IMG/VR virus record: IMGVR_UViG_3300045988_036843
Coordinates: 1 to 55,665 of that record
From: a virus
Strand: one strand, 5' to 3'
DNA length: 55,665 nt
How positions within the stretch are numbered: position 1 is the stretch's first letter; every line of letters starts with the position of its first letter. The translations under genes were made by a program, and so were the position numbers. This document shows, piece after piece, positions 1,789 to 55,665 of this stretch. The notes under the pieces are model-generated. The model saw only the letters and a program-made list of their open reading frames with translations. It did no database searches and was not told the origin of the DNA.

Positions 1789-1885
1789 AAACACTAAAAA
1801 GTGTGTAATGTTGCGTGTGCAACTTGACATGAACACTAAAAAGTGCTATTATAATGTCAGAAACAAACGAACACTAAAAAGTGTT
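1789..1885 (+). promoter_or_regulatory. Three copies of operator AACACTAAAAAGTG(T/C) (inverted repeat AACACT-N4-AGTGTT)
   Basis: Copies at 1789-1805, 1832-1846 and 1870-1885. The same motif occurs twice at 53636-53674 on the other strand. Confidence 0.7.
1824..1852 (+). promoter_or_regulatory. Sigma-70-type promoter, TTGACA-17 nt-TATTAT, with an operator in the spacer
   Basis: TTGACA 1824-1829, 17-nt spacer tgAACACTAAAAAGTgc, TATTAT 1847-1852. Sits 64 nt upstream of ATG 1916. Confidence 0.65.
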
Positions 1886-3028: not shown

Positions 3029-3058
3029 CCCGGTCAGAAATGGCCGGGCTTTTCTTTT
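3029..3058 (+). terminator. Rho-independent terminator of the 1916-2938 operon
   Basis: CCCGGTCA-GAAA-TGGCCGGG hairpin (one mismatch) followed by CTTTTCTTTT. Confidence 0.6.
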
Positions 3059-3841
3059 GCCTTGCATCTGCTGAGGGTGCAGGGCTTTTATTTTTGTCCT
3101 GCTACAATACAGCCCAATACAAGCGTTTACGGCACGTTTTACGCCGTTAATGCAGTTATACATCCCCGCCACAAAACAGCACACAGGGCTTTACAGGCGC
3201 TTTTCCGGCTATTTGCCGCATTTTACCGACACTATTATATATATGTGTATCCGACTGGACTGCACCACCTGCCCCACGTTGGAGCGTATCACAGCGCCGC
3301 AGCACCTCCAGCACATACAAGATACCAGCACCACGCCGGACACTGTACAGGTCAACGCAGCCGCCTATTATAATAAGGTATATAAGGGTGCAGCGGTGCG
3401 CCGCTATTATAGATCCATGCCAGACAGTGCAGCACATCGCAGACCATGCAAGCCCGGCGGCTTGCAGTCTGGCAGCGGAGCAGTCCAGCGTCATGGGCGC
3501 GGCGGGCGGCGCGGAACCATTGACGGCTACCGCCGTATCTCTTTTCGGGCTTTCGCCCGATAGCTAATAGATGTCAGCAATAGTCGCAGCGTTCCGGCTG
3601 GAATAGTCGTAATATCTTCTGGAATAGTCGTAGTTTCTCCGATAAAATAGTCGTAGAATAGTCGTAAAGTCGTCAGACGGCTAGCTTTTGAAAGTCCTAT
3701 ATATAGTATAGTAGCGAACAGTCCGCTGATAGTCGTAAAGTAATAGTCGTAGCGTTTTCTTGCGAACCATCGTCAAATAGTCGTGTGTTTTTTGTGTGAA
3801 ATAGTCGTTCGCCTTTTAGGAAAAGAGAGGTGCGATAGTCG

Positions 3842-4140
3842 CTAAGTCATCCAACCATTCCAAAAATCACCTCTCGTTCCAATTTCGCATAATATATTCT
3901 TCCGCTAGTTATATCTATTTCGTATAATAACCGTACTTATTATAGTATACAGATATAGTTGCTCCCGATAATTACAGATTATTTCGTATAATAACTCGCA
4001 CCATCCAATTCGGTCTGCTCCTCCTCGATTTAATTCCCAGTAATGCACTATGGTATCTTGCTCAATTCATAGTATTATACCAGGAATAGCCAATGCAACA
4101 TTTGTGCATATTCAACCGACAACAAAACAAAGTCAATTCT
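3842..4140. other. AT-rich block inside the iteron field (possible DNA unwinding element)
   Basis: Visibly AT-rich. Contains a direct repeat ATTTCGTATAATAAC x2 (about 3917 and 3981) and TATAGTATA-like motifs. Confidence 0.45.
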
Positions 4141-4348
4141 CCATGTGAAATAGTCGTAGACCGTCCACCAGTCCGAATCTCACGCCAGTTCTTGCCTTCG
4201 GCCTGCTCTGCTGGCTAACGGTGTAGCTTTTGGAGATAGAGGGTTGTAGGGGGAAAGAACCTTTGCGAAAGCATTTTGTTGTAATTTTCAGTTGTTGCAG
4301 TTGTCGCACCATTTTGGCGTGGGGGCCTCAAACAATTTATTTGTTTGA

Positions 4349-4416
4349 GGGGGGAGTTAGGGGGATTATAGGGGGTAATAGGGGTTGTAGGGGAAAGAGG
4401 GGGAAGAAAAGGGGGG
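4349..4416 (+). repeat. Array of seven G4-G6 tracts with 5-7 nt loops (G-quadruplex-prone; TAGGGG-type repeats)
   Basis: G tracts at 4349-54, 4360-64, 4371-75, 4381-84, 4390-93, 4399-4403 and 4411-16. A further GTAGGGGG lies at 4246-4253. Confidence 0.8.
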
Positions 4417-4423
4417 AAGATTG

Positions 4424-4466
4424 GATGCAAACGCATCATGTGCATCCATTTGCATGCAAACGCATC
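4424..4466. repeat. Two copies of palindromic (G)ATGCAAACGCATC
   Basis: Copies at 4424-4437 and 4454-4466. Each is GATGC-AAAC-GCATC, with TGCATCC/TGCATGC motifs between them. Confidence 0.75.
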
Positions 4467-4981
4467 TTGCCGATAGTCGCAGTCATTCTTTGCTTCCGTC
4501 TCACTTTGCCCTCCGATTGGACGAATAGTCGTTGGCATCTGTGCATCTGGCTGCTATCATCGCTGGAAAGGCGCGTAGGAGCCTGTCTGCCGCGTTTTTC
4601 TGATTGACCCAATAACTTTCACGTCTGACCTTGAAAAGCCGTTCTCCACGCTCCTGCATCGGGCTGATTGCGCGGTCTGGTTTGAGATATACCATCAGCA
4701 TCAACGGAGAGCCGCCTACGAGCGTCTGTGGCGCGTTTTTGCAATGAAACAGATAAAGTTATCGTCCAGTACCTAAAACGCCTTAAAACAGGCTTTCTCT
4801 CGGAGTTGGCGAAAAAACGAAAAGAGCCACTATCGCCGGTAGCCCTTTTACGTCCGTTATTTCATTGATGAAAAATATTTGCGAGGTTCAGGCGGTAACT
4901 TTATCGCCCAGACCCTGTTATCTGTTTTTCTTGCCTATTCTACTGTGACGATACGAACACAGAAGAGATGCTAGGCTACTA

Positions 4982-5257
4982 TCACTCAATCGCTTCGTAT
5001 GTTTTCTCGAAAATGTCAGGTTTACACGGGTAGATTTCGCCATTTACGCCACGAATGATATAATCGCCAGCCCTCGCAACCATAGTCCCTTCAAGCGTTT
5101 TAATCTCGCACCACGCAGGGTCATTGTAAAACTTTCCGAAGTTATGCGTGATAATATCATTGCTACTTACTGCATCCCAGAACCAATCCGCTCCAACAAG
5201 TCCTCGTGCATTGATCTTGAATGCTTCGATAACAACTGGCTTCTTTCTGTATTTCAT
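4982..5257 (-). CDS. PGDYG-domain-like phage protein (91 aa)
   Basis: ORF track 4982..5368. ATG 5257 ([13 protein letters not shown]) behind a GAGGAG RBS. C-terminal [26 protein letters not shown]. Confidence 0.6.
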
Positions 5258-9011: not shown

Positions 9012-9229
9012 TCTTGCTTCCTCCAACCGATAAACTCACACAGGCCGATGGTCTGCGCGTCGCATCTGTGCGTGTATTTGACGGTCGGCAAATTAAACCC
9101 TTTTAAGTTATTGCAAACGGTTTCAAGGCTAAAAAGTTCGTCAAACGCATTGTCAGGAATTTTCGCATCTTCGGTGTTGTAGATAACCATACCGCATTGT
9201 TTGCAACGCCATATAGAACATCTCTTCAT
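9008..9229 (-). CDS. Zn-ribbon hypothetical protein
   Basis: 73 aa with CKQCG...C...C. Stop/start overlaps in the operon. Confidence 0.55.
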   Translation of the reverse strand: MKRCSIWRCKQCGMVIYNTEDAKIPDNAFDELFSLETVCNNLKGFNLPTVKYTHRCDAQTIGLCEFIGWRKQE

Positions 9230-16574: not shown

Positions 16575-16831
16575 TCTGCATCCCTCCATTTGCTGGTGTG
16601 ATGTGTTACACGGCTGATTTTCTTGCTTTTACGGTTTCCATATTCGTTTTCCGCATTAACGCCAAGTGCGCACATGACAAGTGCCACAGCCAAAAGCGAA
16701 ACTGAGAGAAAAGTGTAAAATAGTCCAGCTCCAAGCGTTGTTGCGTTTTCAATTGAGCTTCCGCAGCCAACAGACCAGATCGAGAACAAAATCCCAACTG
16801 TAACCAATATCGTCCCTTTTACGCTTTTCAT
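16571..16831 (-). CDS. Small membrane protein (possible lipoprotein)
   Basis: 86 aa with two or three hydrophobic helices and an SVGCGSS lipobox-like motif. Confidence 0.5.
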   Translation of the reverse strand: MKSVKGTILVTVGILFSIWSVGCGSSIENATTLGAGLFYTFLSVSLLAVALVMCALGVNAENEYGNRKSKKISRVTHHTSKWRDAE

Positions 16832-17064
16832 TTTTTCACCTTTTTCAACACGACATCGAAGTAATCCGGGTTTGAGCTATCAACGATTGCGTATGCGTTC
16901 AAAACATCGCATATCTTCAAAAGTGTCCCTGTTCTGATTCCTTCTTTGTGTCTGGCTCTTCTTCTCCCGAGGATGCTGTCTAGTGTCGGCCTTGACACTG
17001 TGCTTTTGCGGCAAAGCTCATTCACACGAATGCCGCGCGCTTTCATGGCATCTTCGAGCTTCAT
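16828..17064 (-). CDS. HTH DNA-binding protein
   Basis: 78 aa. VNELCRKSTVSRPTLDSIL is a helix-turn-helix-like segment. Confidence 0.5.
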   Translation of the reverse strand: MKLEDAMKARGIRVNELCRKSTVSRPTLDSILGRRRARHKEGIRTGTLLKICDVLNAYAIVDSSNPDYFDVVLKKVKK

Positions 17065-20455: not shown

Positions 20456-20588
20456 TTGACAAGTACGGAAAACTGTACTAATATAAGGGTGTAGAGAGTT
20501 TATATTGTACAGCGTTCTGTACTGCCCATGTCTGTATTATAGTACAAGCTTCTGTACAAGTCAACTCTTTTGTACAAAATTCTGTGCA
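20456..20588. promoter_or_regulatory. Genetic switch: four 18-bp operators (WGTAC-N8-GTRCW) and two consensus promoters that cross each other
   Basis: Operators at 20462-79, 20506-23, 20541-58 and 20571-88. Plus-strand promoter TTGACA (20456-61)-17-TAATAT (20479-84). Minus-strand promoter TTGACT (20559-64)-17-TATAAT (20536-41). Each spacer is an operator. Confidence 0.65.
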
Positions 20589-20621
20589 TTTGTATACTTG
20601 CACAAATATGGGAGCATTCTT

Positions 20622-20951
20622 ATGTCGGACTTGTACAGCAACATCCACGCACTCTGCGAAAAAGAGGGCATCAAAGACGGAACCCTTTGCAGCAACATTG
20701 GGATTCGCCGCAGTTTTCTTTCCGAATTGAAAGCCGGAAGAACCAAAAGCCTGTCCACAGAGGTTCTTTCTAAGATTGCAGCTTATTTCAACGTATCGGT
20801 GGACTACCTTCTCACTGGCGACCAAAAAGAAAACCCGACCCAGCAGCCGCAAAGTGAGGCCGATGCAGCGTTGGAGCGGATTAGAAAAAAGCTTGAATCT
20901 ATGCCGAAAGCGCAGCGTGAAGCGCTGATGAACCTAATCGAGAAGATGTAA
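20622..20951 (+). CDS. XRE-family HTH repressor (CI-like, 109 aa)
   Basis: ORF track 20505..20951. ATG 20622 behind a GGGAG RBS. LCSNIGIRRSFLSELKAGRTKSLSTEVLSKIAAYFNVSVDYLL is a classic XRE HTH. Confidence 0.75.
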   Translation: MSDLYSNIHALCEKEGIKDGTLCSNIGIRRSFLSELKAGRTKSLSTEVLSKIAAYFNVSVDYLLTGDQKENPTQQPQSEADAALERIRKKLESMPKAQREALMNLIEKM

Positions 20952-20976
20952 CGTTCATGCCCGGTAAAATAAAAGA

Positions 20977-21019
20977 ATCCCTTGTGCCGGGCTGGTGTAG
21001 CTCTGCGCAAGGGATTTTC
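20977..21019. terminator. Bidirectional rho-independent terminator
   Basis: ATCCCTTGTGC...GCGCAAGGGAT stem flanked by an A-run and a T-run, between convergent genes. Confidence 0.55.
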
Positions 21020-21021
21020 TA

Positions 21022-21123
21022 TTATTCCAAGTCTAGTGCTTGCTCTGCTGCCGGAATCTTTTCAGGATGTTCCAGTAGCCATGCAATAAATCGGTCAATC
21101 TTAGCTCTTTCCTGTTCACTCAT
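21022..21123 (-). CDS. Small ORF (33 aa), a stand-alone transcription unit
   Basis: ATG 21123 behind a GGGAGGA RBS, MSEQERAKIDRFIAWLLEHPEKIPAAEQALDLE. Has its own promoter upstream and a terminator downstream. Not in the ORF track. Confidence 0.35.
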   Translation of the reverse strand: MSEQERAKIDRFIAWLLEHPEKIPAAEQALDLE

Positions 21124-21170
21124 TGTGGCATATCCTCCCGATCTGTAAGTACGGATGTTCATTTGATATG

Positions 21171-21198
21171 ATTATACATCTTTCAGTTGTGTAGTCAA
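21171..21198 (-). promoter_or_regulatory. Sigma-70-type promoter, TTGACT-16 nt-TATAAT
   Basis: -35 is the reverse complement of 21193-98; -10 is the reverse complement of 21171-76. Confidence 0.45.
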
Positions 21199-21309
21199 TA
21201 CTATTTTAACAACTTCGCAAAAATCGAACATTTTCTTTACATCCATTACTTTACATCAGGGAAGCCCAAAATTGCAATGAGCGTCCAATAAAGCCACGAT
21301 GGGACTCGA

Positions 21310-21555
21310 TTATCCTTTATTTTGCAATACGTCTTTGAGCATGGAACGAAAGGGGTTTTCAGGTAACTTGTCCAGTACATCTGCTTTGACAAGCGCGTTT
21401 GTGCTAATGCTATGCGAAACATTGTTTAGCTGCACAATGGCATCGTCCAAGTCTTTTACGGTTGCTCCACGCCGTTCCATTGACTGGAGAAAAGTTTTCA
21501 CTTCTTCAAGAACGACAGGGTTCTCGGCTTTATAGAATCCATTCGTAAAGTCCAT
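21310..21555 (-). CDS. Hypothetical protein (81 aa)
   Basis: ORF with an upstream RBS (AAAGGAGAAGAAG). Confidence 0.55.
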   Translation of the reverse strand: MDFTNGFYKAENPVVLEEVKTFLQSMERRGATVKDLDDAIVQLNNVSHSISTNALVKADVLDKLPENPFRSMLKDVLQNKG

Positions 21556-21567
21556 CTTCTTCTCCTT

Positions 21568-21774
21568 TCACAGTTCCACAAGCTGTCCGTCAATGCGTTC
21601 GATGTTGTCTGCCGGGTCGCGTCCATCGTCCAAGGCGGCTACGGCGCGTTCCAGGATGCCTTTTGCTTCGAGGTAAGCATCTTTATCAGCTTCGTACCCA
21701 GAAAGGCTCAGGACAAGCTCCAGCGTCCGTCTGCGAGCGTATGGGACAATCAGAGCGTCTACAGTTCGGTTCAT
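21568..21774 (-). CDS. Hypothetical protein (68 aa)
   Basis: ORF track 21568..21789. ATG 21774 (MNRTVDAL) is coupled to the upstream small ORF by TAATG. Confidence 0.5.
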   Translation of the reverse strand: MNRTVDALIVPYARRRTLELVLSLSGYEADKDAYLEAKGILERAVAALDDGRDPADNIERIDGQLVEL

Positions 21775-21884
21775 TAGCTTTCCTCCCACGGTTCAGGTGT
21801 GTGCGGCTTCCCATCGGGGACGCTAGCGGGCATCCCGTCGATGATTGGCATACGTTCATGGTTCCAGATTACAGTTTCTTTCAT
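21774..21884 (-). CDS. Small ORF (36 aa), not in the ORF track
   Basis: ATG 21884 behind an AAAGGAA RBS, MKETVIWNHERMPIIDGMPASVPDGKPHTPEPWEES. Confidence 0.35.
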   Translation of the reverse strand: MKETVIWNHERMPIIDGMPASVPDGKPHTPEPWEES

Positions 21885-22046
21885 TTTGCGTTTCCTTTCT
21901 CTTTGGGATTTTTTGACAATACTGTTATAACATATCTCGCTGTTTCAATGGAACAGCGACTTTTTTCAATTATTGTTTCACATTTTGAACAATATATCAG
22001 TTAAATTTCTTTGTTTTTGTATCGTTTTGTCGAAAGAGGGGTATTT

Positions 22047-22640
22047 ATGGATGATTATAGAATACGAGTGGCAAAAGCGTTAGAGATGGCAAGAGCGGAA
22101 TCTGGACTTAGCCAACAGAAGCTTGCGGACAAAATGGGTGTAGGCCGGACATCCATTTTTCGTTATGAGCAAGGAACAATGACCCCAGATGCTCCTACTA
22201 TCATAAAGTGGTTTGTATGCTGCGGTGTTGCGGCCAAGCCGTACATAGATACCTGTTTGCATCCTGGCTTGTTGGAAAGCCTGGCTAGCGATGCCAACAC
22301 CGAAAGAAAGAGGGATGCGCTGATAGAGCATATCAAAGAAGCCCATCCACAGGAAATTGACCTGCTGTGCTATCTGATCTATGGCAATCACGGCTCAGAT
22401 TACCTTGCCGTTCTGTGCGAAATGGTAGCCAACCTTCACACGACTTTGCGTGATCGTGTGTCCGTCTGTCGCACCGTCACAGGTCATTATGAGATGGCGC
22501 AGGCCACCAAAACCGACCCAGACCCAGACGGAACACAACCTAATATGCATATTTTGTATCAGGCACAAGACTGTGGAGAAGCTGCGGCCATGAAGCGAAA
22601 CGATTCTTATACCATCAATGAAGAAAACATTTTGCGCTGA
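22047..22640 (+). CDS. XRE-family HTH regulator with a ~130-aa C-terminal domain
   Basis: ORF track 22011..22640. ATG 22047. SGLSQQKLADKMGVGRTSIFRYEQG is an HTH. First gene of the plus-strand maintenance module. Confidence 0.7.
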   Translation: MDDYRIRVAKALEMARAESGLSQQKLADKMGVGRTSIFRYEQGTMTPDAPTIIKWFVCCGVAAKPYIDTCLHPGLLESLASDANTERKRDALIEHIKEAHPQEIDLLCYLIYGNHGSDYLAVLCEMVANLHTTLRDRVSVCRTVTGHYEMAQATKTDPDPDGTQPNMHILYQAQDCGEAAAMKRNDSYTINEENILR

Positions 22641-22953
22641 TTGTCGAATTATCGCAGTTTTTGAAGAACATCTTGTACACCTTTCAACGAATTGATTTCT
22701 ACTTGTGATGCATATATTTCTCTTGTTGCGTAGATAAATAACGTTAATATGTTATGTTTTTGCTCGCCCTAGCAAAATTATAACTTGATTATCAAAACTA
22801 AAACCTGTGCACATTAAGTACACCATTGTGTAAAATTGACTTTCATTTTGATAAAATAAGAAAAAAATAGAGATTATGGAGCTTCTTCTTTTGTTTAGTA
22901 GAAGATTATTTAACTCTTGTTTATAATCTTGTTTATATATAATGTAAGAATGG

Positions 22954-23044
22954 GTACGAGATGTGCATGATTGGGTACGAGATGTGCATAAGCGTGTACG
23001 AGATGTGCATCAAATAAGGGGGTCTATGTGTACAAGATGTGCAT
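22954..23044 (+). repeat. Four iterons GTAC(G/A)AGATGTGCAT upstream of rep
   Basis: Copies at 22954-68, 22975-89 and 22996-23010 (21-bp spacing) and at 23030-44. An AT-rich region precedes them. Additional GTACAC(C) motifs lie nearby. Confidence 0.8.
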
Positions 23045-23100
23045 GAATCAATGTAAGTGAATAAAACTATTGACGTGTACACCTTTATGTGATAAAATGA

Positions 23101-24201
23101 GTGTACAGAGAAAGGAGATGTACACTATTGGCAGAACTTTACGAAAATAACCTGATTGAAAAAAGCAAGGCGCTTGTTTGGGCAGAGTTTAATGATTACA
23201 CTGTTGGAGAACTGCGGCTTTTGGAAGTATATCTTAGCCGTATCAATCCTAGAGATGAAAAATCTAGCGAAGTCAAGTTTACCCTTTCGGAATATTGCGA
23301 TTTGCTTGGGCTGCGTGTTAATAGCAGGAACATCGAGAAACAAATTGAACATTTTCTTGGAAACGTTGTGACGCTTCCCCTTAATGATGATGGAAGCGAG
23401 TACAATATGTATACGCTTTTTACGAAAGCAAGTGTTACGATTGATAAAAACTTAGGAATGTACGTCGTTACCCTCTGCTGCAATCCTGAATTGAGAAGTG
23501 TTTTCTTCGATATTGCTAAGAGCGGTTATATCAAGTATAGACTTCGCTATACGGTTAAAATGAAATCGCAGTATAGCATTCTGCTCTATTCGATGCTGCG
23601 AGATATGATGAATCGTGGTGGAGACCATTTTGATATCAGCATCAATCGGCTCCGTTCACATCTCGGCGCAAATGCAGGATGCTATGAGAGTTTCAAAAAC
23701 TTTAGACGGAGAGTTTTGGATGCAGCAGTTGAAGAAATCAATGATGTGTCAGACATTTATGTTACTTACGAAAAAATCTCGTTTGGAAACAAGGCTGTTG
23801 CCGTTTCTTTTGTCGCCAAGAAAAAAGACGAAAAGCCTGTCGCTGAATTAAAGGCGAAAGAATATAAAGAGGAACTTCCGTTCAATGACAACATTCTTGT
23901 CAGCCGACCGAATAAAAAGGCTTACAGTGATGTAGATTGGGAGAATATAGCGCCAGACCTTGAGAAATCAGAGTGCATCGGCATTGCAAGAATGGTTGGG
24001 AAAAGGATGATCGAGAGCTTCCCTGCTATTAAGGCTCATAAGAAGAAAGCTGCCGTTGTAAATATTGTGAGTAATGCGTACAATAAAATCTTGAAAGACA
24101 AGAAGGAATGGCCTGATAACCCCGCTGGCTATCTTTACAGAGTTATCGAAAACTCCGACTTGGATGAGTTTGCGACTTTTGACGATAGCTTCTTGAAGTA
24201 G
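23101..24201 (+). CDS. rep: Plasmid-type replication initiator (Rep_3/RepB-like winged-helix)
   Basis: 366 aa. The layout NNLIEKSKALVWA...ELRLLEVYLSRI...YIKYRLRYTVKMKSQYSILLYSML...FKNFRRRVLDAAVEEIN, plus upstream iterons, resembles theta-plasmid initiators. Start is GTG 23101 or TTG 23128. Confidence 0.65.
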   Translation: MYRERRCTLLAELYENNLIEKSKALVWAEFNDYTVGELRLLEVYLSRINPRDEKSSEVKFTLSEYCDLLGLRVNSRNIEKQIEHFLGNVVTLPLNDDGSEYNMYTLFTKASVTIDKNLGMYVVTLCCNPELRSVFFDIAKSGYIKYRLRYTVKMKSQYSILLYSMLRDMMNRGGDHFDISINRLRSHLGANAGCYESFKNFRRRVLDAAVEEINDVSDIYVTYEKISFGNKAVAVSFVAKKKDEKPVAELKAKEYKEELPFNDNILVSRPNKKAYSDVDWENIAPDLEKSECIGIARMVGKRMIESFPAIKAHKKKAAVVNIVSNAYNKILKDKKEWPDNPAGYLYRVIENSDLDEFATFDDSFLK

Positions 24202-24255
24202 TCAGATGCAGCGCATTAAACAGAATGAGCAGACAATGCAGAAAGGAGAAAGAGT

Positions 24256-24537
24256 ATGATTCCGATGTTTCCGAAAGGATATGACAAGGACAAGTGGTAC
24301 ATGACCAAAGATGTTATGCCGGATAAAAGCCTAGAAAGATGGCCGCATGGGCTTTTACTTCGTGTCGAAGATGAGAAAACAGGAGAAAAAAGTTTCATAA
24401 CCGGCGAGTACGATACAATCAATGGCAAATGGTTTGATTCCGATAGTAATGAAATCAAAGGAGCTGTAATTGCATGGCACGTCACGCCTGTGTTGTGGGT
24501 CGGAGACGAGATAAAAGCAGCATATCCGTTCTACTAA
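24256..24537 (+). CDS. DUF551-like hypothetical protein (93 aa)
   Basis: AAAGGAG RBS. KWYMTKDVMPD...GAVIAWHVTP. Confidence 0.5.
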   Translation: MIPMFPKGYDKDKWYMTKDVMPDKSLERWPHGLLLRVEDEKTGEKSFITGEYDTINGKWFDSDSNEIKGAVIAWHVTPVLWVGDEIKAAYPFY

Positions 24538-24574
24538 AAAGAAAAAGTGGCCAGAACGACGAGGAGGTTGACTC

Positions 24575-25111
24575 ATGGCAGCAAACGCTGGGTATTTGCT
24601 ATCTGATCGTTCAAAAAATGGGGATGAACAGTATACGCCAAGTTATGCTGTAAAACCTCTTTTGGAATTTATTCCGAACGACAAAATTATTTGGTGTCCG
24701 TTTGATAAAGAGTGGTCTGCATTCGTGAATGTTTTCAAAAAAGCAGGACATAACGTGATGTATAGCCATATTGACTATGGGCAGGATTTCTTTTGCTACG
24801 AGCCAAAAAAATGGGACATAATGGTTTCAAACCCACCATTCAGCAAAAAAGATGCTGTGCTCTGCAGAGCGTATAAACTAGAAAAACCGTTTGCACTGCT
24901 TCTTCCGGTAAACTGCATTCAAGGGGAAGAGAGATATAAAATTTTCAAGAATGACATTCAAATGCTTTGTTTTGACAAAAGAATAGGTTTTATAAATCAA
25001 AACAATATGGGCAAGCCGGTGGAGAGGGCGGCTTTTGGAAGTGCATATTTTTGCCGAAATCTACTTCCAACTAAACTTGAATTACGCAGTCTGAGCAAAG
25101 AAAACGCATAA
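24575..25111 (+). CDS. Small N6-adenine DNA methyltransferase-like protein
   Basis: 178 aa. GAGGAGG RBS. EQYTPSYAVKPL and IMVSNPPFSKKD (NPPF motif IV). Confidence 0.55.
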   Translation: MAANAGYLLSDRSKNGDEQYTPSYAVKPLLEFIPNDKIIWCPFDKEWSAFVNVFKKAGHNVMYSHIDYGQDFFCYEPKKWDIMVSNPPFSKKDAVLCRAYKLEKPFALLLPVNCIQGEERYKIFKNDIQMLCFDKRIGFINQNNMGKPVERAAFGSAYFCRNLLPTKLELRSLSKENA

Positions 25112-25175
25112 TATTGATTTCATGCTTTAATATAAAACAGTTAAACTATATTTTTAAGTAAGAAAGAGTGATAAA

Positions 25176-25955
25176 ATGGCAAAAATCATAGCTGTCGCCA
25201 ATCAGAAGGGCGGCACAGGAAAGACCACAACAAGCACCTGTTTGGCTGGTGCGTTGCAGTTACTTGGCGAGAAGGTCTTGCTAGTGGACTGCGATGCCCA
25301 GTGCAACGCAACGGACACCTACGGCGCACAGACAGAGGACGTATGCACCCTGTTTGATGTGATGACCAGGCAGGGCACGGTCGAAGAAGGAATCCAGCAC
25401 TGTGAAGCTGGTGACATTCTTCCGTCTGATAACGCATTGAAGGACATTGACGAACAGCTTGTGCGGGACATAGGCAAGAACTTCCGGCTGCGAGAAGCCC
25501 TTGAAAGCGTGTCTGAGCAGTATGATTACATTGTGTTGGACACTCCCCCGCAGCTTGGTCTTGCGCTTGTGAACGCTCTGATCGCCGCCAACAGCATCAT
25601 CGTGCCCATCACAGCAGACCGATATGCACTGGCTGGTTTGAGCCAGCTTTCGCAGACCATCGGCGATGTTCGCAGATATTTCAATCCGACTTTGAAGATT
25701 GAAGGATTGCTTCTGAATCAGTACAAGAGCCGTGAGAACCTGTCCAAAGAGGTTGTGGAGCAGCTTCCTGTGATTGCACAGAGCATGGGAACAACCCTGC
25801 TGGATGTGAAGATTAGACCATCTATGGGCGTCCGTAAGGCGCAGGCAGAGCGTCACAGCCTGTTTAGCGGAGACACGGCAAAGAGCACCAGCGCAGAGGA
25901 TTTCAAGGCGTTGGCGCAGATGATTGTGGAGGGAGATAACAATGCGACTGATTGA
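25176..25955 (+). CDS. parA: ParA/Soj-family partition ATPase
   Basis: 259 aa. Deviant Walker A ANQKGGTGKTTT, DCDAQ, IVLDTPP. Confidence 0.85.
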   Translation: MAKIIAVANQKGGTGKTTTSTCLAGALQLLGEKVLLVDCDAQCNATDTYGAQTEDVCTLFDVMTRQGTVEEGIQHCEAGDILPSDNALKDIDEQLVRDIGKNFRLREALESVSEQYDYIVLDTPPQLGLALVNALIAANSIIVPITADRYALAGLSQLSQTIGDVRRYFNPTLKIEGLLLNQYKSRENLSKEVVEQLPVIAQSMGTTLLDVKIRPSMGVRKAQAERHSLFSGDTAKSTSAEDFKALAQMIVEGDNNATD

Positions 25956-26277
25956 CGGCGAAATCGTTCAGAGTGAGATTTCTGGTTATTGGGCTGGAGC
26001 TAAAAGCAAGGAAGAAAAAGACGCATATATGGACGCTCTTGTGGCAGTTATGGACACAGCAGAGTTTCAAAAATGGACACCAACAAACTATGAATGGGAT
26101 TTGCCAAAAGAGAAGAAAGAAGTTTTGTTGGCTGACAAAGATGGAAGCATTTATATTGGATATTATTGGAAAGGGCTTTGGTGGAATAATCGGGGAATTG
26201 TAAAACAGTTCAATCCGGGAGAAATTGAATATTGGATGCCAATTCGTGAACTTCCGAAGAAAGTAGAGGAAATGTAA
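25942..26277 (+). CDS. DUF551-like protein (111 aa) between parA and the RHH gene
   Basis: ORF track 25924..26277. ATG 25942 behind a GGAGGGAG RBS. ...EIEYWMPIRELPKK. Confidence 0.5.
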   Translation: MRLIDGEIVQSEISGYWAGAKSKEEKDAYMDALVAVMDTAEFQKWTPTNYEWDLPKEKKEVLLADKDGSIYIGYYWKGLWWNNRGIVKQFNPGEIEYWMPIRELPKKVEEM

Positions 26278-26278
26278 A

Positions 26279-26851
26279 ATGAAATCAACCAGCAAAAAAT
26301 CCTCAGGCTTGCTTGGCGGGTTTGATTTCCGGCCTATTTTTTCGGAGCAGGCATTAAGCCGAAGTGAGCCAAAGGAAGAAGAAGTAAGCCAAGCAAAGCC
26401 GAACGAAGCTGAACAAGCACCGATTAAGCCCAGTGAAGCCACAGACAGCCATGCACAGCCCAATGAAGCACAGTTAAGCAGTATTAAGCCGAAGCATGCC
26501 AAAGACAGCGAAATACAGCCAAACAATGCCGTAGTAAGCGAAAGTAAGCCAAAGAAGTTGAAACAGGCGAGGGAAGTTCAACGTCTTATCGAACAGGGCG
26601 ATGTTCCCGGCGCACTAGCCGAAGCTGGTTTGACAAAGAAAAAAATCCCGATGCCAGTATCGCATCAGGGCGTTGCAAGTGGCGATGGCAAGCGTTCAAA
26701 GCGCATTACCATCCTTATGAGCGAGGAAGAGCGCAAGTACATCAACCGTGAAGCCAGACGGCATGGAATGACGATTGGGCAGTTCGTGTACGCTCTGGCG
26801 GTTGCAGCGGCAGAGGGAAAGATTGAGTTGGAGGATTTCTTGGAGGATTGA
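26279..26851 (+). CDS. Ribbon-helix-helix protein with 10-aa tandem repeats (candidate centromere-binding protein/regulator)
   Basis: 190 aa. C-terminal KRITILMSEEERKYINREARRHGMTIGQFVYALAV is an RHH fold. The N-terminal half has (xxxKPxEAxx)n repeats. Confidence 0.6.
   Translation: MKSTSKKSSGLLGGFDFRPIFSEQALSRSEPKEEEVSQAKPNEAEQAPIKPSEATDSHAQPNEAQLSSIKPKHAKDSEIQPNNAVVSESKPKKLKQAREVQRLIEQGDVPGALAEAGLTKKKIPMPVSHQGVASGDGKRSKRITILMSEEERKYINREARRHGMTIGQFVYALAVAAAEGKIELEDFLED
26351..26550 (+). repeat. 20 tandem 10-bp units (NNNNWRAGCC) in perfect register inside CDS 26279..26851
   Basis: Eleven units end exactly in AGCC and most others differ by 1-2 bases. There are no indels over 200 bp. Confidence 0.9.
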
Positions 26852-27412: not shown

Positions 27413-27546
27413 GGAAAACGCTAGAGGATAGAACAGGCAGCTATCACCCATCGTTAGGAGATGTGGGAATCGTCACCCCACCTAGCTTTTTCAATAGTAA
27501 ACCCCTGTGTAGTCGCAATGACCGCACAGGGGAGAAAGGAAACGAC

Positions 27547-29410: not shown

Positions 29411-29490
29411 AATAAAACAAAATCCCCCACTTTGCCTACAAAGTACCCCGCGTGGCACGCAGGGCTTCGGCAAAGCAGGGGATTTTTTTG
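29411..29490. terminator. Long compound hairpin, bidirectional terminator-like
   Basis: AATCCCCCACTTTGCC (29421-36) pairs with GGCAAAGCAGGGGATT (29469-84). There is an inner CCCCGCG/CGCAGGG stem, and T-runs follow on both strands. Confidence 0.6.
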
Positions 29491-48501: not shown

Positions 48502-48579
48502 TGGTGCTGCATAATGGATTTGAACCAGTGTATGCCCGGTTATGAGCCGGGTGCTCTAGCCATACTGAGCTAATGCAAC
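48502..48579 (-). tRNA. tRNA with anticodon CAT (Met or Ile2), CCA encoded
   Basis: Hand fold: acceptor GTTGCAT/ATGCAGC, D arm GCTC-AGTATGGCTA-GAGC, anticodon arm CCCGG-CTCATAA-CCGGG, T loop TTCAAAT (one T-stem mismatch), then ACCA. Confidence 0.75.
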
Positions 48580-50656: not shown

Positions 50657-50768
50657 AAAAAAATAGGCACCCCCTACCTGAAAATGTAAAGAGTGCCTAC
50701 AACTGCACAAAAATCAAATATTCAGCTTTATAATGCTGCTTTAGAAATTTTCTTTATTGACTCGATTT

Positions 50769-50966
50769 TCAAATTCCTTCCGCTGCTTTGATGGCAGCAC
50801 GAACTAATTTATATACGCAAAACTCTCTGTTCTCCCAAGTGGACTTTCGACATTCTTCTGCACACTGAATAATATCCAAAAGGCTCCCTCCGTTCATCAT
50901 TTGAGTCAAAATACGAATATCTTCTTCACTCCACCACTCCGGGACTTTCACAGCTTTGTTGTCCAT
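50769..50966 (-). CDS. Hypothetical protein (65 aa)
   Basis: ORF track 50769..50984. ATG 50966 behind a GAAGGAG RBS. Confidence 0.5.
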   Translation of the reverse strand: MDNKAVKVPEWWSEEDIRILTQMMNGGSLLDIIQCAEECRKSTWENREFCVYKLVRAAIKAAEGI

Positions 50967-51001: not shown

Positions 51002-52216
51002 TTATTCTCCAGCTTTGAAATTGTAAATCGGCTTAATATGCTTTACAATATCAACGGTTGGAGAGATTGCGTTGATAATTTCCTGCGCTGGCTTATATGC
51101 CATCGGGCATTCATCCAACGTGGATTCATCGGCTGACGTAGTATAAATGCCGTTCATTTGCTTTTGGTATTCCTCAACGCTGAATGCTTTTTTAGCCGCT
51201 GTTCTGCTATATAGTCTGCCAGCACCATGCGGAGCAGAGAAATTCCAATCAGGATTTCCCTTACCAACACAGATAAGGCTTCCATCTCTCATATTAAGAG
51301 GAATAATCAGCTTCTCGCCCTCTCTAGCGGATACAGAGCCTTTTCGGATAATATCATCCGATTCATCAATATAGTTATGAACGGTTTCAAAGAAGGACGC
51401 ATGGGTCAGCATAGAGTCAATTCCAACACCATCTAAAATAGTGTGCATAATTCTCGCTCGATTCATGCTCGCAAAAGCCTGACAAATCCGCATATCGTTA
51501 AGGTAAGAATCGCGTTCTTTACCTTCGAGATAGCAAAGCTCATTCGGAATATCAGGGAACCGAATATCCAGCTCTTTGATTTTTTGCGAAATTTCCTGTT
51601 CACGACCTTGCTCTTTCAGTTCCGCAATCAGACGTTCCGTAGCTTCTTTTCTTTTGTTCTTTCCTTTGATATTTGAGATAGCTACGCTTTGATGATACTC
51701 TGCAACTTGCTTGCCAAGATTTCGGCTTCCAGTATGGATAACAAGGTACTGGTTTCTTTCTTCGTCTTCGTCCAGCTCGATAAAATGATTGCCGCCGCCC
51801 AAAGTACCCATACTGCGAAGAATCCAGTCAACATTATGTAGACTATCTTTGCATTCAAGCTGGCTAAGGAAAGCATCCGACATTTTCTGCGATTCATGAA
51901 CATTCATTCCAGCCGGAACTCGTTCTCTAATCACTTTATCTAACTTTTTTGGGTCAATGTGTTCAATTCCAAGCTCAGCGACAAGCATTCCGCAACCAAT
52001 GTCCACGCCCACAATATTCGGGATGACTTTCTTGCCCAAATCTGCCGTAAAGCCAATTACGCACCCAGAACCGGCGTGAACGTCTGGCATAATACGAATC
52101 TTGCATCCGTCAACAAAGCTCTGATTGCAAAGCGTCAAAATCTGCTCAGCCGCTTTATCTTCAATATTGTCTGTAAACACCTTTGCGGACGCATATTTTC
52201 CTTCAATCGTTTTCAA
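51002..52216 (-). CDS. rtcB: RtcB-family RNA 3'-phosphate ligase
   Basis: ORF track 51002..52276. A TTG start at 52216 behind an AAAGGAG RBS is preferred. Motifs DVHAGSG, GGGNHFIELD, HTGSRNLG, APHGAGR. Confidence 0.85.
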   Translation of the reverse strand: MKTIEGKYASAKVFTDNIEDKAAEQILTLCNQSFVDGCKIRIMPDVHAGSGCVIGFTADLGKKVIPNIVGVDIGCGMLVAELGIEHIDPKKLDKVIRERVPAGMNVHESQKMSDAFLSQLECKDSLHNVDWILRSMGTLGGGNHFIELDEDEERNQYLVIHTGSRNLGKQVAEYHQSVAISNIKGKNKRKEATERLIAELKEQGREQEISQKIKELDIRFPDIPNELCYLEGKERDSYLNDMRICQAFASMNRARIMHTILDGVGIDSMLTHASFFETVHNYIDESDDIIRKGSVSAREGEKLIIPLNMRDGSLICVGKGNPDWNFSAPHGAGRLYSRTAAKKAFSVEEYQKQMNGIYTTSADESTLDECPMAYKPAQEIINAISPTVDIVKHIKPIYNFKAGE

Positions 52217-52262
52217 CTTGTTCTCCTTTCTTATTCGATTTTGTTTTAGGTTGCGAACAATG

Positions 52263-52583
52263 TCAATTGAAAACATTAGCTAGCACAATGCTAATCAGCC
52301 CTGCAACAACGCTGGTCAAAACGCCGCAAGCAAATCCTATCCCACGTTCTTTCCACTGTTCAATCTTTTCCAACTTATGAATTTTCTTATAGTTCCTTGC
52401 ACGTTCCAACAGCCAGAATGCTGTGTGCTGCGTGTCGCCCCAGCGTATCAGCCCATCGTTGGCAAGGGATTCAAGAACGAACTGTGCCGTAAAGTCCAGT
52501 TTGTCTTGCAGGGCTTTTACAGAATAAAATCCATTCGGAAGGTCTGGCTCATAGGTGTTCAGCGTGTCGATCAGGCGCTTCAT
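52263..52583 (-). CDS. Hypothetical protein with a C-terminal TM anchor (106 aa)
   Basis: ORF track 52263..52673. ATG 52583 (MKRLIDTL). Confidence 0.5.
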   Translation of the reverse strand: MKRLIDTLNTYEPDLPNGFYSVKALQDKLDFTAQFVLESLANDGLIRWGDTQHTAFWLLERARNYKKIHKLEKIEQWKERGIGFACGVLTSVVAGLISIVLANVFN

Positions 52584-52720: not shown

Positions 52721-53296
52721 TCACCTGTTCTGTTCAGCAATCCGATACCATGTCTGGCGGGTCACACCAAGCTGTTTGGCAGCGTCCGTGACCGTGAGAA
52801 TGCGCTTCTCCACCTGCTCGTGGAGAACGTCAAAGAGGTTGCGGTCATACTCGGTTGGCTTGCGGCCTTCCCTGTAATCGGGGCGCTGACTAGCAATCTT
52901 CTTGCCCTCTCTGGTGCGTTCAACAATCATGTCACGCTCAAACTCGGCGAATGCAAGCATCACCGTGCGAATGACCTTGCCGGTGGGGGAGTTATTCATA
53001 ACCCCCATGTTCAGGATGTTCACCGAAACGCCCTTATCAATAAACTGGTCTATCAGTTCAAGACCATTCTTAGCGGAACGGGCAATGCGGTCAAGCTTCG
53101 CCACGATCAGCGTATCTCCCGGCTGGATTTCAGCCATCAGCTTGTCCAATTCAGGTCGATGCAACTTCGTGCCGGTGTAAACATCCGAAAAGATTTTCTG
53201 TGCGCCGTTAACTTTCAGAAGTTCCGACTGTGCTTCAAGGCTGTTGCCGTCAATCGCTTGTCCAGCGGAACTAACACGAGCGTAACCGTAAATCAT
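52721..53296 (-). CDS. Small serine recombinase (resolvase/invertase family)
   Basis: 191 aa. [12 protein letters not shown] catalytic motif, resolvase core and C-terminal HTH ([16 protein letters not shown]). Confidence 0.9.
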
Positions 53297-53604
53297 TTTC
53301 CTTCACTCGCTTCCTTTGCTTTTCTTGTAAAGTATTCCGTCTTAAATTCATCTAGGCCATCGTCAAGAATATACCTTTCGTTGCAATTCGGGTCAACTGG
53401 TTCAAGAACGATGCGATAGCCTAAAAGCCAACAAAATCTTGCCAAAATTCTAACAGTGAGACCGTCGCCTCTTAAACGCTGCGTGACGAAAGAACTTGTT
53501 TTTTCCTTCCCGCCAATTTCGTGCGCCCAATAAGTCTTGGTTTTGCTTTTATCTCTTTTCTGTTCTTTTTCTATAAGTTCTCTGACCACTTCATTGCTCC
53601 GCAT
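53293..53604 (-). CDS. HTH DNA-binding protein (candidate binder of the AACACT operators)
   Basis: 103 aa. An XRE-like segment ...[33 protein letters not shown]. First gene behind the operator-bearing promoter. Confidence 0.5.
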
Positions 53605-53630: not shown

Positions 53631-53674
53631 ATTATAAACTTTTTAGTGTTGGTTGTCAAGAACTTTTTAGTGTT
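53631..53674 (-). promoter_or_regulatory. Consensus promoter TTGACA-17 nt-TATAAT with two AACACTAAAAAGTT operators
   Basis: -10 is the reverse complement of 53631-36 and -35 the reverse complement of 53654-59. Operators at 53636-50 (in the spacer) and 53661-74. ATG 53604 lies about 27 nt downstream of the -10. Confidence 0.7.
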
Positions 53675-53837
53675 GGAATTTATTTTTTACTATCATTAGG
53701 GTGGTCAAACGGCTGTAAACTTTTTCGTTGCTTTACAAACTGTATACTTGAATAGTAGCCTTACGAATTATCGAAGAATAATTTTCAAGTTACTATCACT
53801 ATGGTAAACTAATCCGTTTACGAAAGTACTATCAAAT

Positions 53838-53853
53838 AACGTAAATTTACGTT
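53838..53853. repeat. Perfect 16-bp palindrome AACGTAAATTTACGTT
   Basis: Read directly. Related half-sites TTTACG lie at about 53817 and 53761. ACTATCA occurs three times nearby. Confidence 0.85.
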
Positions 53854-53904
53854 AGAATGAGTAAAAATAAGAAATATCTGATGCAAATTATACAAATTGG
53901 GCTG

Positions 53905-53933
53905 TTGACAACTATATACCAATCGTCTATAAT
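53905..53933 (+). promoter_or_regulatory. Perfect consensus promoter TTGACA-17 nt-TATAAT
   Basis: TTGACA 53905-10, TATAAT 53928-33. Followed by a ~210-nt structured leader. Confidence 0.7.
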
Positions 53934-54145
53934 CTAAGACAGCAGAACACACGATGAATCAGCCAACAACGACAGATTTATCCTTTGTGGCATAAAAAAT
54001 AGGCCGTCAGCCCCACCGACCAAAGTAGTACTGACGACCTATTCCACCACAAAACAGAAGCTGCGCAACCAAGGGCGCAGTCTCGGTTTCTGTTAATTAT
54101 TATAGCAGAAGCAGACAACTTCTGCAATAGAAAGGAGCAAAAAAC

Positions 54146-54298
54146 ATGAAATTCCCCACGACAACCGAAGAATTCCTGAAAACCCTTGCACACGGCAAAG
54201 AGCCGACCAGCGAGGACAGGGAGTACGCAGAAGCGCTGGGCAAGCTGTCCGAACTGAACTACCGGGCAGGGTACGAAGCGGGACGTAAAGAAAAGTAA
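54146..54298 (+). CDS. Small protein (50 aa), not in the ORF track
   Basis: ATG 54146 behind an AAAGGAG RBS, MKFPTTTEEFLKTLAHGKEPTSEDREYAEALGKLSELNYRAGYEAGRKEK. Confidence 0.45.
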   Translation: MKFPTTTEEFLKTLAHGKEPTSEDREYAEALGKLSELNYRAGYEAGRKEK

Positions 54299-54355
54299 CA
54301 TAATTTCGGCAATTCGTATGTATTATAAATTACATCGTAAAATCGTTTGAAATTA

Positions 54356-54383
54356 TTTACTTCACAAGGAAAAGTGGTATAAT
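54356..54383 (+). promoter_or_regulatory. Extended -10 promoter (TTTACT-16-TGgTATAAT)
   Basis: TGGTATAAT at 54375-83, upstream of the RHH gene. Confidence 0.45.
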
Positions 54384-54412
54384 ATAATTACGCCGAAAGG
54401 AGGTGAATGAGT

Positions 54413-54586
54413 ATGACGTACAACAACCCGAATGGTGCACAGTGCAACGCCAACGTCAGCAAGGAAATGCTGGCAGAGATCAATCACTACTGCACCGTAT
54501 GCGACCTTAATCGAAGTCAGTTTATGCGCAGAGCCATTTCAGAGTATCTGCAAAATCATCCGCTGCCCGATGAAAACGAAAAATGA
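54413..54586 (+). CDS. Ribbon-helix-helix (Arc/CopG-like) regulator (57 aa), not in the ORF track
   Basis: ATG 54413 sits 8 nt after an AAAGGAGG RBS. VSKEMLAEINHYCTVCDLNRSQFMRRAISEYL fits an RHH strand-helix-helix. Confidence 0.6.
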   Translation: MTYNNPNGAQCNANVSKEMLAEINHYCTVCDLNRSQFMRRAISEYLQNHPLPDENEK

Positions 54587-54704
54587 TACGCTCGCTAAAG
54601 TTACCAGCCACAGCGAACGTATCATGTAAACCCTGAGAGAAGCATTCTCTCGCCGTTATTATAGCAGAAAATCGCTTCTCTCACAAGTGAAAAGGAGATT
54701 TTTA

Positions 54705-55529
54705 ATGCAACTTTCTTTGTCTGAGAACATCAAAATCTTCAACAACGCCGAGTTTGGCGAAATTCGTGCCGCACTTATTGACAACGAACCGTGGTTTGTG
54801 CTGAAAGATGTATGTGTAGCGTTTGGAGAAACCAATTATCGACGCGTTGCCGCCAGATTAGATGATGAAGAAAAGGGTGTGTCACAAATCAACACCCCCG
54901 GCGGCACACAAAGCATGACTGTTGTGAATGAAGCTGGGCTTTATTCTGCGTTGTTTGCAATGCAGCCAGAGAAAGCTCGTGGTGTCAATGAGGAATATAT
55001 TTCCAATAGACAAGAGCAATTAAAGAAATTCAAGCACTGGGTCACTCACGAGGTTTTGCCATCCATCCGCAAGCATGGGATGTATATGACCGACAACCTG
55101 TTGGAGACAGCTATTGCCAACCCGGACTTCGTGATCGGTCTGATTCAGAACATGAAAGCCGAAAAGGAAAAGAACGCAGCATTACAGACGCAGAACAAGC
55201 AGCTCTGTGAGAAGAACGAGGAGATGCAGCCTAAAGCGGACTACTTCGATGACCTTGTGGCGTGGAACGTATCTACCAACTTCCGCTCGACCGCAAAGGA
55301 GCTGCGTATCCCTGAACGTCTGTTCATCAAGATGCTTATTTCTGACGGATACATCTACCGTGACAAGAGCAAGGGCATCCTGCCGAAAGCTGGCAAGGGT
55401 GACGGTCTCTTTGCCGTCAAGGAATACTGCAACCAGAAGAACAAGCACGGTGGCGTACAGACCAGAGTAACGCCGAAAGGCCGTGAGACATTCCGTTTGC
55501 TTTATGCAAGCATCCGTAAAAGCGTATAA
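54705..55529 (+). CDS. ant: Antirepressor (BRO-N domain plus KilAC/ANT C-terminal domain)
   Basis: ORF track 54687..55529. ATG 54705 behind an AAGGAG RBS. FGEIRAALIDNEPWFVLKDVCVAFG...EAGLYSALF...WVTHEVLPSIRKHGMY. Confidence 0.85.
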   Translation: MQLSLSENIKIFNNAEFGEIRAALIDNEPWFVLKDVCVAFGETNYRRVAARLDDEEKGVSQINTPGGTQSMTVVNEAGLYSALFAMQPEKARGVNEEYISNRQEQLKKFKHWVTHEVLPSIRKHGMYMTDNLLETAIANPDFVIGLIQNMKAEKEKNAALQTQNKQLCEKNEEMQPKADYFDDLVAWNVSTNFRSTAKELRIPERLFIKMLISDGYIYRDKSKGILPKAGKGDGLFAVKEYCNQKNKHGGVQTRVTPKGRETFRLLYASIRKSV

Positions 55530-55537
55530 CAACCTAT

Positions 55538-55584
55538 AAAAAAGCCAGTGGTTAGAGAACATCTAGCCGCTGGCTTTTGTGTTT
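55538..55584. terminator. Bidirectional terminator spanning the repeat junction
   Basis: AAAAGCCAGTGG...CCGCTGGCTTTT stem (one G-T pair) with an A-run and a T-run, between convergent ant (+) and CDS 37..747 (-). Confidence 0.65.
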
Positions 55585-55665
55585 ACGGAACTATGAATCG
55601 GCAATCAGTGAATTTGTTTCCATCAAAATCACCGACGAATGTAACGGTCTGGCCGGGAGAAAGCC
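55547..55665. repeat. Direct terminal repeat, right copy (identical to 1..119)
   Basis: See the left copy. Confidence 0.95.

Follow-up and report, generated by a model that had tools for sequence, protein, structure and literature searches.

The window analysed here, the whole 55,665-nucleotide stretch of IMG/VR record IMGVR_UViG_3300045988_036843, carries the same 119 bp, without mismatch, at its two ends as a direct repeat (1-119 and 55547-55665) and is therefore taken as a circular or terminally redundant complete genome of 55,546 bp. Two promoters, P1 on the plus strand (1824-1852) and P2 on the minus strand (53631-53659), fire outward from the two sides of a short island; the initial annotation had placed them ~3.7 kb apart on the circle, and the terminal repeat, together with two relatives that carry both promoter sites on one contig, supports the circular map and gives a distance of 3.66 kb.

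P2 drives an operon that runs along the minus strand through the HTH-recombinase-RtcB side of the map, as had been proposed. Its first gene encodes a 103-aa XRE-type HTH protein (53293-53604), the proposed repressor, whose stop codon overlaps the start codon of the co-transcribed small serine recombinase of the resolvase/invertase type (52721-53296; 191 aa; Pfam Resolvase PF00239, domain E = 6e-36; NCBIfam Mpi-invertase-like). The cargo that follows consists of a 106-aa membrane protein (52263-52583), an RtcB RNA ligase (51002-52276) and a 65-aa ORF (50769-50966), all on the same strand, and the operon ends at a minus-strand hairpin with a 15-bp stem and a T run (50663-50700) directly before the TerL ATG (50656). 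The stem of this hairpin contains a purine-rich stretch, AGGTAGGGGG, just upstream of the TerL ATG, and is conserved in relatives L003 and L122; the hairpin could be a terminator that needs antitermination, or it could serve translational control.

In the other direction P1 drives the unknown operon assigned to it earlier, four small plus-strand genes from 1917 to 2938 followed by two intrinsic-terminator-like hairpins (3029-3085). The first gene (1917-2239, 107 aa) and the third (2338-2670, 110 aa) are without a family match and occupy variable cargo slots; the second encodes a 29-aa membrane peptide (2232-2321) that is kept in 58 of 78 relatives, and the last a conserved 87-aa protein (2675-2938) that resembles the C-terminal part of PHROG 434, annotated as RecE-like, the sole match of the P1 genes in Pfam, PHROGs and NCBIfam. 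Among 78 genomes the cargo between P1 and the 87-aa gene comprises ~25 small-protein families in more than 45 arrangements, of which the membrane peptide and the 87-aa gene alone are constant; one of the families (in relative L011) is very acidic. Beyond the P1 terminators, and before the end of the minus-strand early genes, lies an ORF-poor stretch of 1.9 kb (3090-4985) with 20-33 stops per frame, perhaps an origin or else a long non-coding region; it gave no evidence of stop-codon recoding and contains short tandem repeats only.

Both promoters are built around copies of one operator. A pattern search of the whole window finds five exact copies of one 13-mer, AACACTAAAAAGT, and no more: three on the plus strand (1790, 1832 and 1870) and two on the minus strand (53638 and 53662); allowing up to two mismatches adds a single site, at 9125, and shuffled sequences give 1.7 matches at the same setting. 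At P1 the first copy, O1 (1790-1805; AACACTAAAAAGTGTG), is centred at about -62 from the predicted start site, and the second, O2 (1832-1847; AACACTAAAAAGTGCT), fills the 17-bp spacer between TTGACA (1824-1829) and TATTAT (1847-1852), the latter with a TG extended -10. The third, O3 (1870-1885; AACACTAAAAAGTGTT), lies in the 5' leader at about +11 to +26. At P2, a promoter that matches the consensus at 12 of 12 positions (TTGACA 53659-53654, 17-bp spacer, TATAAT 53636-53631), one operator (53635-53650; AACACTAAAAAGTTTA) fills the spacer and a second (53659-53674; AACACTAAAAAGTTCT) abuts the -35. The sequence thus confirms that at both sites one copy fills the 17-nt spacer of a near-consensus promoter. 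Two neighbouring claims stand in part: the palindrome AACACT-AAAA-AGTGTT had been counted three times at P1 and twice at P2, and the number and sites hold for the 13-mer, but only O3 among the five copies is a perfect 16-bp palindrome, the right half being degenerate in both P2 operators (AGTTTA and AGTTCT). Likewise, of the supposed duplicated promoter-operator cassette, the operator and the hexamers are common to P1 and P2, but no longer duplicated segment is present. Promoters with at least 11 of 12 consensus positions number 8 in the genome against 0.8 in shuffles, and half of the eight fall within the P2-P1 island. Chance as the origin of the repeats and promoters was rejected by these shuffle comparisons.

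A different palindrome, GTTGCGTGTGCAAC (1810-1823), abuts the P1 -35. It is present in operator types A, F, H, L, M and N and is independent of operator type, and since it is both a single copy in the genome and conserved across several operator types a further factor probably binds there. Upstream, between a membrane-protein gene and P1, a GC-rich non-coding block (1540-1780) is conserved across all operator types; its core, CCAGCGCACCCGGAC.GACTGCACA.CACAGGCAGCAGGGCAGGCCGTGCCAGA, is nearly invariant, and it has no Rfam match. A stem GTGTCCG...CGGACAC stands just upstream of O1 and is changed on both arms in one relative (L001). Rfam searches, at the gathering threshold over the whole window and at an E-value threshold over 1380-1920, found no RNA family at P1 or P2; elsewhere the matches at the gathering score were a skipping-rope RNA (27417-27489, plus strand), a DUF3800-VIII RNA (29421-29484, minus strand) and a tRNA (48505-48579, minus strand).

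The P2-P1 interval contains a perfect promoter (53905-53933), a 50-aa ORF, an RHH gene, an antirepressor gene and two membrane-protein genes on the opposite strand. The unit at 53905-55529, with its perfect promoter at 53905 and a strong promoter at 54361, encodes a 59-aa ribbon-helix-helix protein and a Bro-N/KilAC antirepressor, and in this it is like the immI region of P22; type-A operators, the type of the window, are not found within 53905-55529. Elsewhere a plasmid-type module (20505-26851) carries two XRE regulators, a replication initiator (PHROG 4402), a methyltransferase-like gene, ParA and an RHH/NikA-like protein. The module is mosaic within the phage family: the Rep of the window is common to only 12 IMG/VR loci, none of them among the typed genomes. 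The ORFs examined include no tyrosine integrase, and this together with the plasmid-type module suggests possible maintenance of the phage as a plasmid. Among public records, unannotated phage contigs from human faeces come nearest. A scan of GTDB genomes found no integrated copies and a single distant match, to an Oscillospiraceae MAG, so that the host is only hinted at.

The strongest evidence on what reads the operators comes from comparison with relatives. The set consisted of 80 IMG/VR loci of 55-60-kb phages, retrieved by the conserved 87-aa P1 gene, and P1 was anchored in each on the conserved GC-rich block upstream. All genomes keep the flanks of P1, namely the GC-rich block, TTGAC, TATAAT and the leader/RBS ACCACCACAAAACAGGAGGAC...ATG, and the ~100-bp operator cassette between these flanks is swapped for other palindromes at the same three positions, upstream, spacer and leader. 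Examples are TACGC-N6-GCGTA, AACAC-AAGAAT-GTGTT, GTAAAC-N6-RTTTAC, ATCCATATATATATGGAT, AACGTA-N4-TACGTT and GTCACA-N4-TGTGAC; the upstream copy equivalent to O1 is found in all operator types, and a copy fills the P2 spacer in all 13, so that the spacer site recurs in two different promoters throughout. The ORF that abuts the recombinase falls into 13 homologous clusters of ~20% identity, most different in the predicted recognition-helix region, and these 13 HTH clusters pair with the 13 operator types. In every one of the 51 genomes that hold both ends, P1 operator, P2 operator and HTH cluster are concordant, which bears out the proposal that one operator is common to the two outward promoters. 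Comparing P1 with P2 by shared 8-mers proved too noisy because of the conserved flanks; instead a matrix of each type's repeated P1 12-mer against the P2 regions of all types was used, which gave a clear diagonal that none of 200,000 permutations equalled (a cruder permutation test gave 2 in 100,000).

This match is kept per genome although the 3-4 kb of DNA between P1 and P2 is reshuffled independently. The window (type A) and L122 (type H) are near-identical in the intervening DNA and differ in both operator sets and in the P2-proximal gene. Strict co-inheritance of the HTH allele with both operator sets is evident from these alignments. Resemblances between types point the same way at the level of predicted DNA recognition, where related operator specificities go with related recognition-helix regions: types A and D have the common arms AACAC-N6-GTGTT and the helix regions SSFVTQR and SSYVTNR, and types B and J have in common GTAAAC-N6-RTTTAC, with SRQAVYQR and SRQALYQC.

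Two other proteins encoded nearby were considered as binders of the operators. The RHH protein was ruled out by its 98-100% identity across types E, F, G and H. The serine recombinase is the subject of a fuller alternative, in which the palindromes are its res-like or invertase sites and serve either Tn3-like autoregulation or inversion of the 3.7-kb island. The palindromes do lie directly upstream of a resolvase/invertase-type gene, P1 has three subsites, the two clusters are inverted relative to each other, and in types G and H the class of recombinase, encoded directly behind P2, covaries perfectly with the operator. However, covariation with the recombinase is lacking in the HTH-bearing types: recombinases at least 97% identical go with six operator types (A, C, D, F, I and N), within type C the identity of the recombinase to that of the window is 49-98%, and L003 has a recombinase whose DNA-binding end, the C-terminal HTH, is identical to that of the window, yet its operator and its HTH protein differ. 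These comparisons rule out the recombinase as binder in the window's type. Inversion is likewise unsupported, and was ruled out, because the orientation of ant relative to the conserved P1 gene is the same in 20 of 20 ant-carrying relatives and no long inverted repeats were found; the sequence common to the two clusters is, moreover, only 13-16 bp. Sites for the recombinase are accordingly a highly improbable account of the palindromes. The HTH protein does covary with the P1 and P2 operators and the recombinase and RHH protein do not, so that it is the best candidate repressor; the suggestion that the HTH gene behind the 53.6-kb promoter encodes an autoregulator is in this way strengthened by the covariation of 13 alleles with 13 operators.

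The predicted structure of the 103-aa protein agrees with such a function. Its AlphaFold2 (AF2) model, built with 34 family sequences, has a pLDDT of 92 and helices at residues 3-17, 23-31, 37-45 and 51-60, followed by a beta-hairpin and a C-terminal helix, a compact four-to-five-helix fold of the XRE or Cro-C1 kind. The best structural matches in BFVD are small phage regulators of the HTH/CI type (E = 7.6e-4), some of them named 'Repressor protein CI'; the best fold matches in the PDB, namely HigA2, HipB and the 434 repressor, are not significant (E > 0.5). The protein of the window has itself no match in Pfam, PHROG or NCBIfam, and aligned members of its family match Pfam HTH_37 (1.2e-8), HTH_26 and HTH_3. 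Members range from 73 to 103 aa and consist of the HTH and the beta-hairpin with or without one further helix. In human-gut viromes the family comprises 106 clusters, some present on at least 1000 contigs; a search for homologues of the type-A HTH protein returned one cluster only. A 78-aa XRE-type protein of the early gene block (16828-17064, minus strand) matches the HTH family profile weakly (E ~0.001-0.01).

The position of the operator, between the hexamers of a consensus promoter, suggests that the HTH protein acts as a repressor. An activator or dual regulator could also bind there, as MerR-type activators bind promoter spacers, and the location of the HTH gene upstream of the large terminase, in a genome where no small terminase was recognised, would allow the protein to be a small terminase or packaging protein. 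The near-consensus hexamers and the optimal 17-bp spacer mean, however, that neither P1 nor P2 needs an activator; family members as short as 73 aa, with the HTH and beta-strand, are too small for a terminase small subunit; and the recurrence of the spacer site in two different promoters of all 13 types speaks against both functions, which we regard as scarcely credible.

Repression by the HTH protein of both P1 and P2, the latter its own promoter, through the common 16-bp palindrome is very probable on this reading of the sequences. A dimer would probably bind AACAC-N6-GTGTT, in which the half-site centres are ~10 bp apart, and when bound in the -35/-10 spacer of these strong sigma-70-type promoters it would block RNA polymerase. 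At P2 the result would be negative autoregulation of the operon for the HTH protein, serine recombinase, membrane protein and RtcB, and at P1 repression in trans of the operon for four small proteins, which the putative auxiliary sites at about -62 (O1) and in the leader (O3) would strengthen. By analogy with other systems both promoters should fire at once in a naive cell that is without the HTH protein, and as the repressor accumulates their output would fall and stay low. On an incoming genome of the same type, P1 and P2 would be silenced by repressor made from a resident copy; this would supply a selective reason for diversification, escape from silencing having driven the family into at least 13 HTH/operator types. 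We infer here the binding by the HTH protein, its repressing in preference to activating action, the timing of the early burst and the role of the cargo. Points that count against this account are the degenerate right half of both P2 operators, the lack of any family match for the window's own HTH protein, and the existence of operator types G and H, in which the HTH gene is missing. The P1 cargo would fit an early accessory hotspot; ten of its families gave no match in Pfam, PHROG or NCBIfam, so that an early-burst or anti-defence role of the P1 genes is proposed by analogy only.

A repressor that acts at two outward promoters invites the question whether it is the primary immunity repressor of the phage, a CI/Cro analogue, with P1 and P2 in the place of PL and PR and the operator types as heteroimmunity groups. 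Two such promoters a few kb apart with clustered palindromic operators, specificities of repressor and operator that covary among close relatives as in lambdoid phages, and the 'Repressor protein CI' entries among the best BFVD matches would all agree with this. The transcription units do not: the P1 operon is just 1 kb long and stops at its two terminators, P2 leads to the recombinase and cargo and then to the hairpin, and neither promoter feeds the replication and early genes at 5-19 kb. Nor does the HTH protein have a cleavable or oligomerisation C-terminal domain, and a divergent PRM-like promoter was not found. There are, besides, two further XRE regulators, one (20505-20951) divergent from the minus-strand block at 5-20 kb and the other (22011-22640) ~1 kb downstream on the same strand. 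Primary immunity is on these grounds an unlikely function for the HTH protein, and its control of two accessory operons remains the preferred reading.

An unexpected feature lies on the island side of P2. Between P2 and the plus-strand promoter at 53905-53933 lies an array of operators of other specificity types (53687-53882): G-like operators in 2-3 copies, at 53687-53702 (strict match 53688-53699) and 53790-53805, and strict pattern matches to the B/J operator (53804-53821), the M operator (53838-53853) and the I operator (53867-53882). When the genome was scanned with the strict patterns of all types, five matches were obtained, namely its own perfect operator and four other-type sites, all four of the latter within 53688-53882, against an average of 0.8 matches anywhere in shuffled genomes. 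A search of the window with the family profile yields no second HTH protein of this family, and in the absence of an encoded cognate HTH protein these operators are orphans here. Relative to the start of the RHH-antirepressor operon, whose consensus promoter follows the array, they are placed at about -65, -94 and -127. The same array recurs in 100 loci, themselves of type A, D or H, and at the corresponding place in other types there is an A/D-type operator. The site proximal to the promoter undergoes a clean swap between I-type and N-type palindromes across loci, within DNA that is ~95% conserved, and which of the two alleles is present is independent of the phage's own type. The covariation supports the initial view that P1 and P2 belong to one regulon, but to call it self-contained was too strong, given the other-type operators that adjoin P2.

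The orphan operators could be fossils of earlier cassette swaps, an explanation that we disfavour: the palindromes are perfect, and the I/N exchange is a clean allelic one within conserved flanks. A more speculative suggestion, which we think possible but put forward with more doubt than confidence, is that the HTH/operator alleles make up a network of identity and cross-talk among relatives that circulate together, beyond 13 or more private circuits. The repressor of a relative of different type in the same cell would then be sensed at, or would control, the promoter of the antirepressor, the expression of which would be adjusted.

Types G and H show what may be another form of the circuit. 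No HTH gene is present in type G (at least five genomes) or in type H (13 genomes); the P2 spacer contains the operator of the type, and the gene that P2 drives directly encodes a serine recombinase specific to the type, 205 or 248-254 aa long. Type G has in addition many TGATAG motifs in P1. Covariation of recombinase and operator was seen only in these HTH-less types, and with the HTH gene absent another protein, either the recombinase or an unlinked factor, must read their operators. Types G and H may represent resolvase-type autoregulation, and they may be an older, Tn3-like state of the system.

The analysis provides an unannotated protein family of gut viromes with a testable function and target. 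Strong selection appears to keep HTH gene, P2 and P1 matched while the intervening DNA recombines freely, and the result is a set of at least 13 natural and probably orthogonal repressor/operator pairs on consensus promoters, possible parts for gene circuits in gut Firmicutes. The P1 hotspot, with its ~25 small-protein families under putatively tight control of an early type, is a sensible place to seek anti-defence or host-takeover functions, and the orphan operators, if functional, would be a rare instance in which one phage responds to the regulator of another.

Among known systems, phage lambda has clustered palindromic operators, OL and OR, at two outward promoters, read by CI and Cro. 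The locus described here shares with it two outward promoters a few kb apart, clustered palindromes and one small, here putative, HTH reader, as well as the exchange of repressor and operators together among close relatives. It lacks lambda's divergent maintenance promoter, a C-terminal domain of the CI type and a second protein that competes for the same sites; the HTH gene runs in the same direction as P2, and the regulated operons are short accessory units and not the main early operons. The KorA protein of RK2 and the C proteins of restriction-modification systems are small autoregulated HTH repressors whose palindromic operators overlap several promoters and which time expression after entry into a new cell. 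The plasmid-type Rep, ParA and RHH module of this genome adds to that likeness in design; here, however, there are two target promoters only, and we know of no many-allele specificity series as a feature of KorA or C-protein systems. Three sites beside a serine recombinase gene, overlapping promoters, recall the resolvases of Tn3 and gamma-delta at res, but in the window's type the sites do not covary with the recombinase, and a genuine likeness may be confined to types G and H. The invertase switches of Hin, Gin and Mpi differ in that the segment here is in one orientation in all 20 relatives that carry ant.

The closest parallel appears to be with the Aca repressors. These bind inverted repeats within the strong promoters from which small, variable genes are transcribed, and for several Aca families control of neighbouring operons besides their own is predicted or has been shown (PMC9410906; PMC13551039). 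The regulated genes of the window match no known Acr or anti-defence protein in Pfam, PHROG or NCBIfam, and solved Aca structures are absent among the 49 PDB fold matches of the HTH protein. The arrangement differs also in that the HTH gene is first behind P2, together with a recombinase, whereas an Aca gene stands at the end of its cargo operon, and in that the P1 cargo operon contains no HTH gene. Common to both is a small HTH protein, here a putative autoregulator, with an inverted repeat in the promoter of its own operon, here in the P2 spacer of all 13 types. The circuit is one of a known kind, and it would work most like the Aca repressors.
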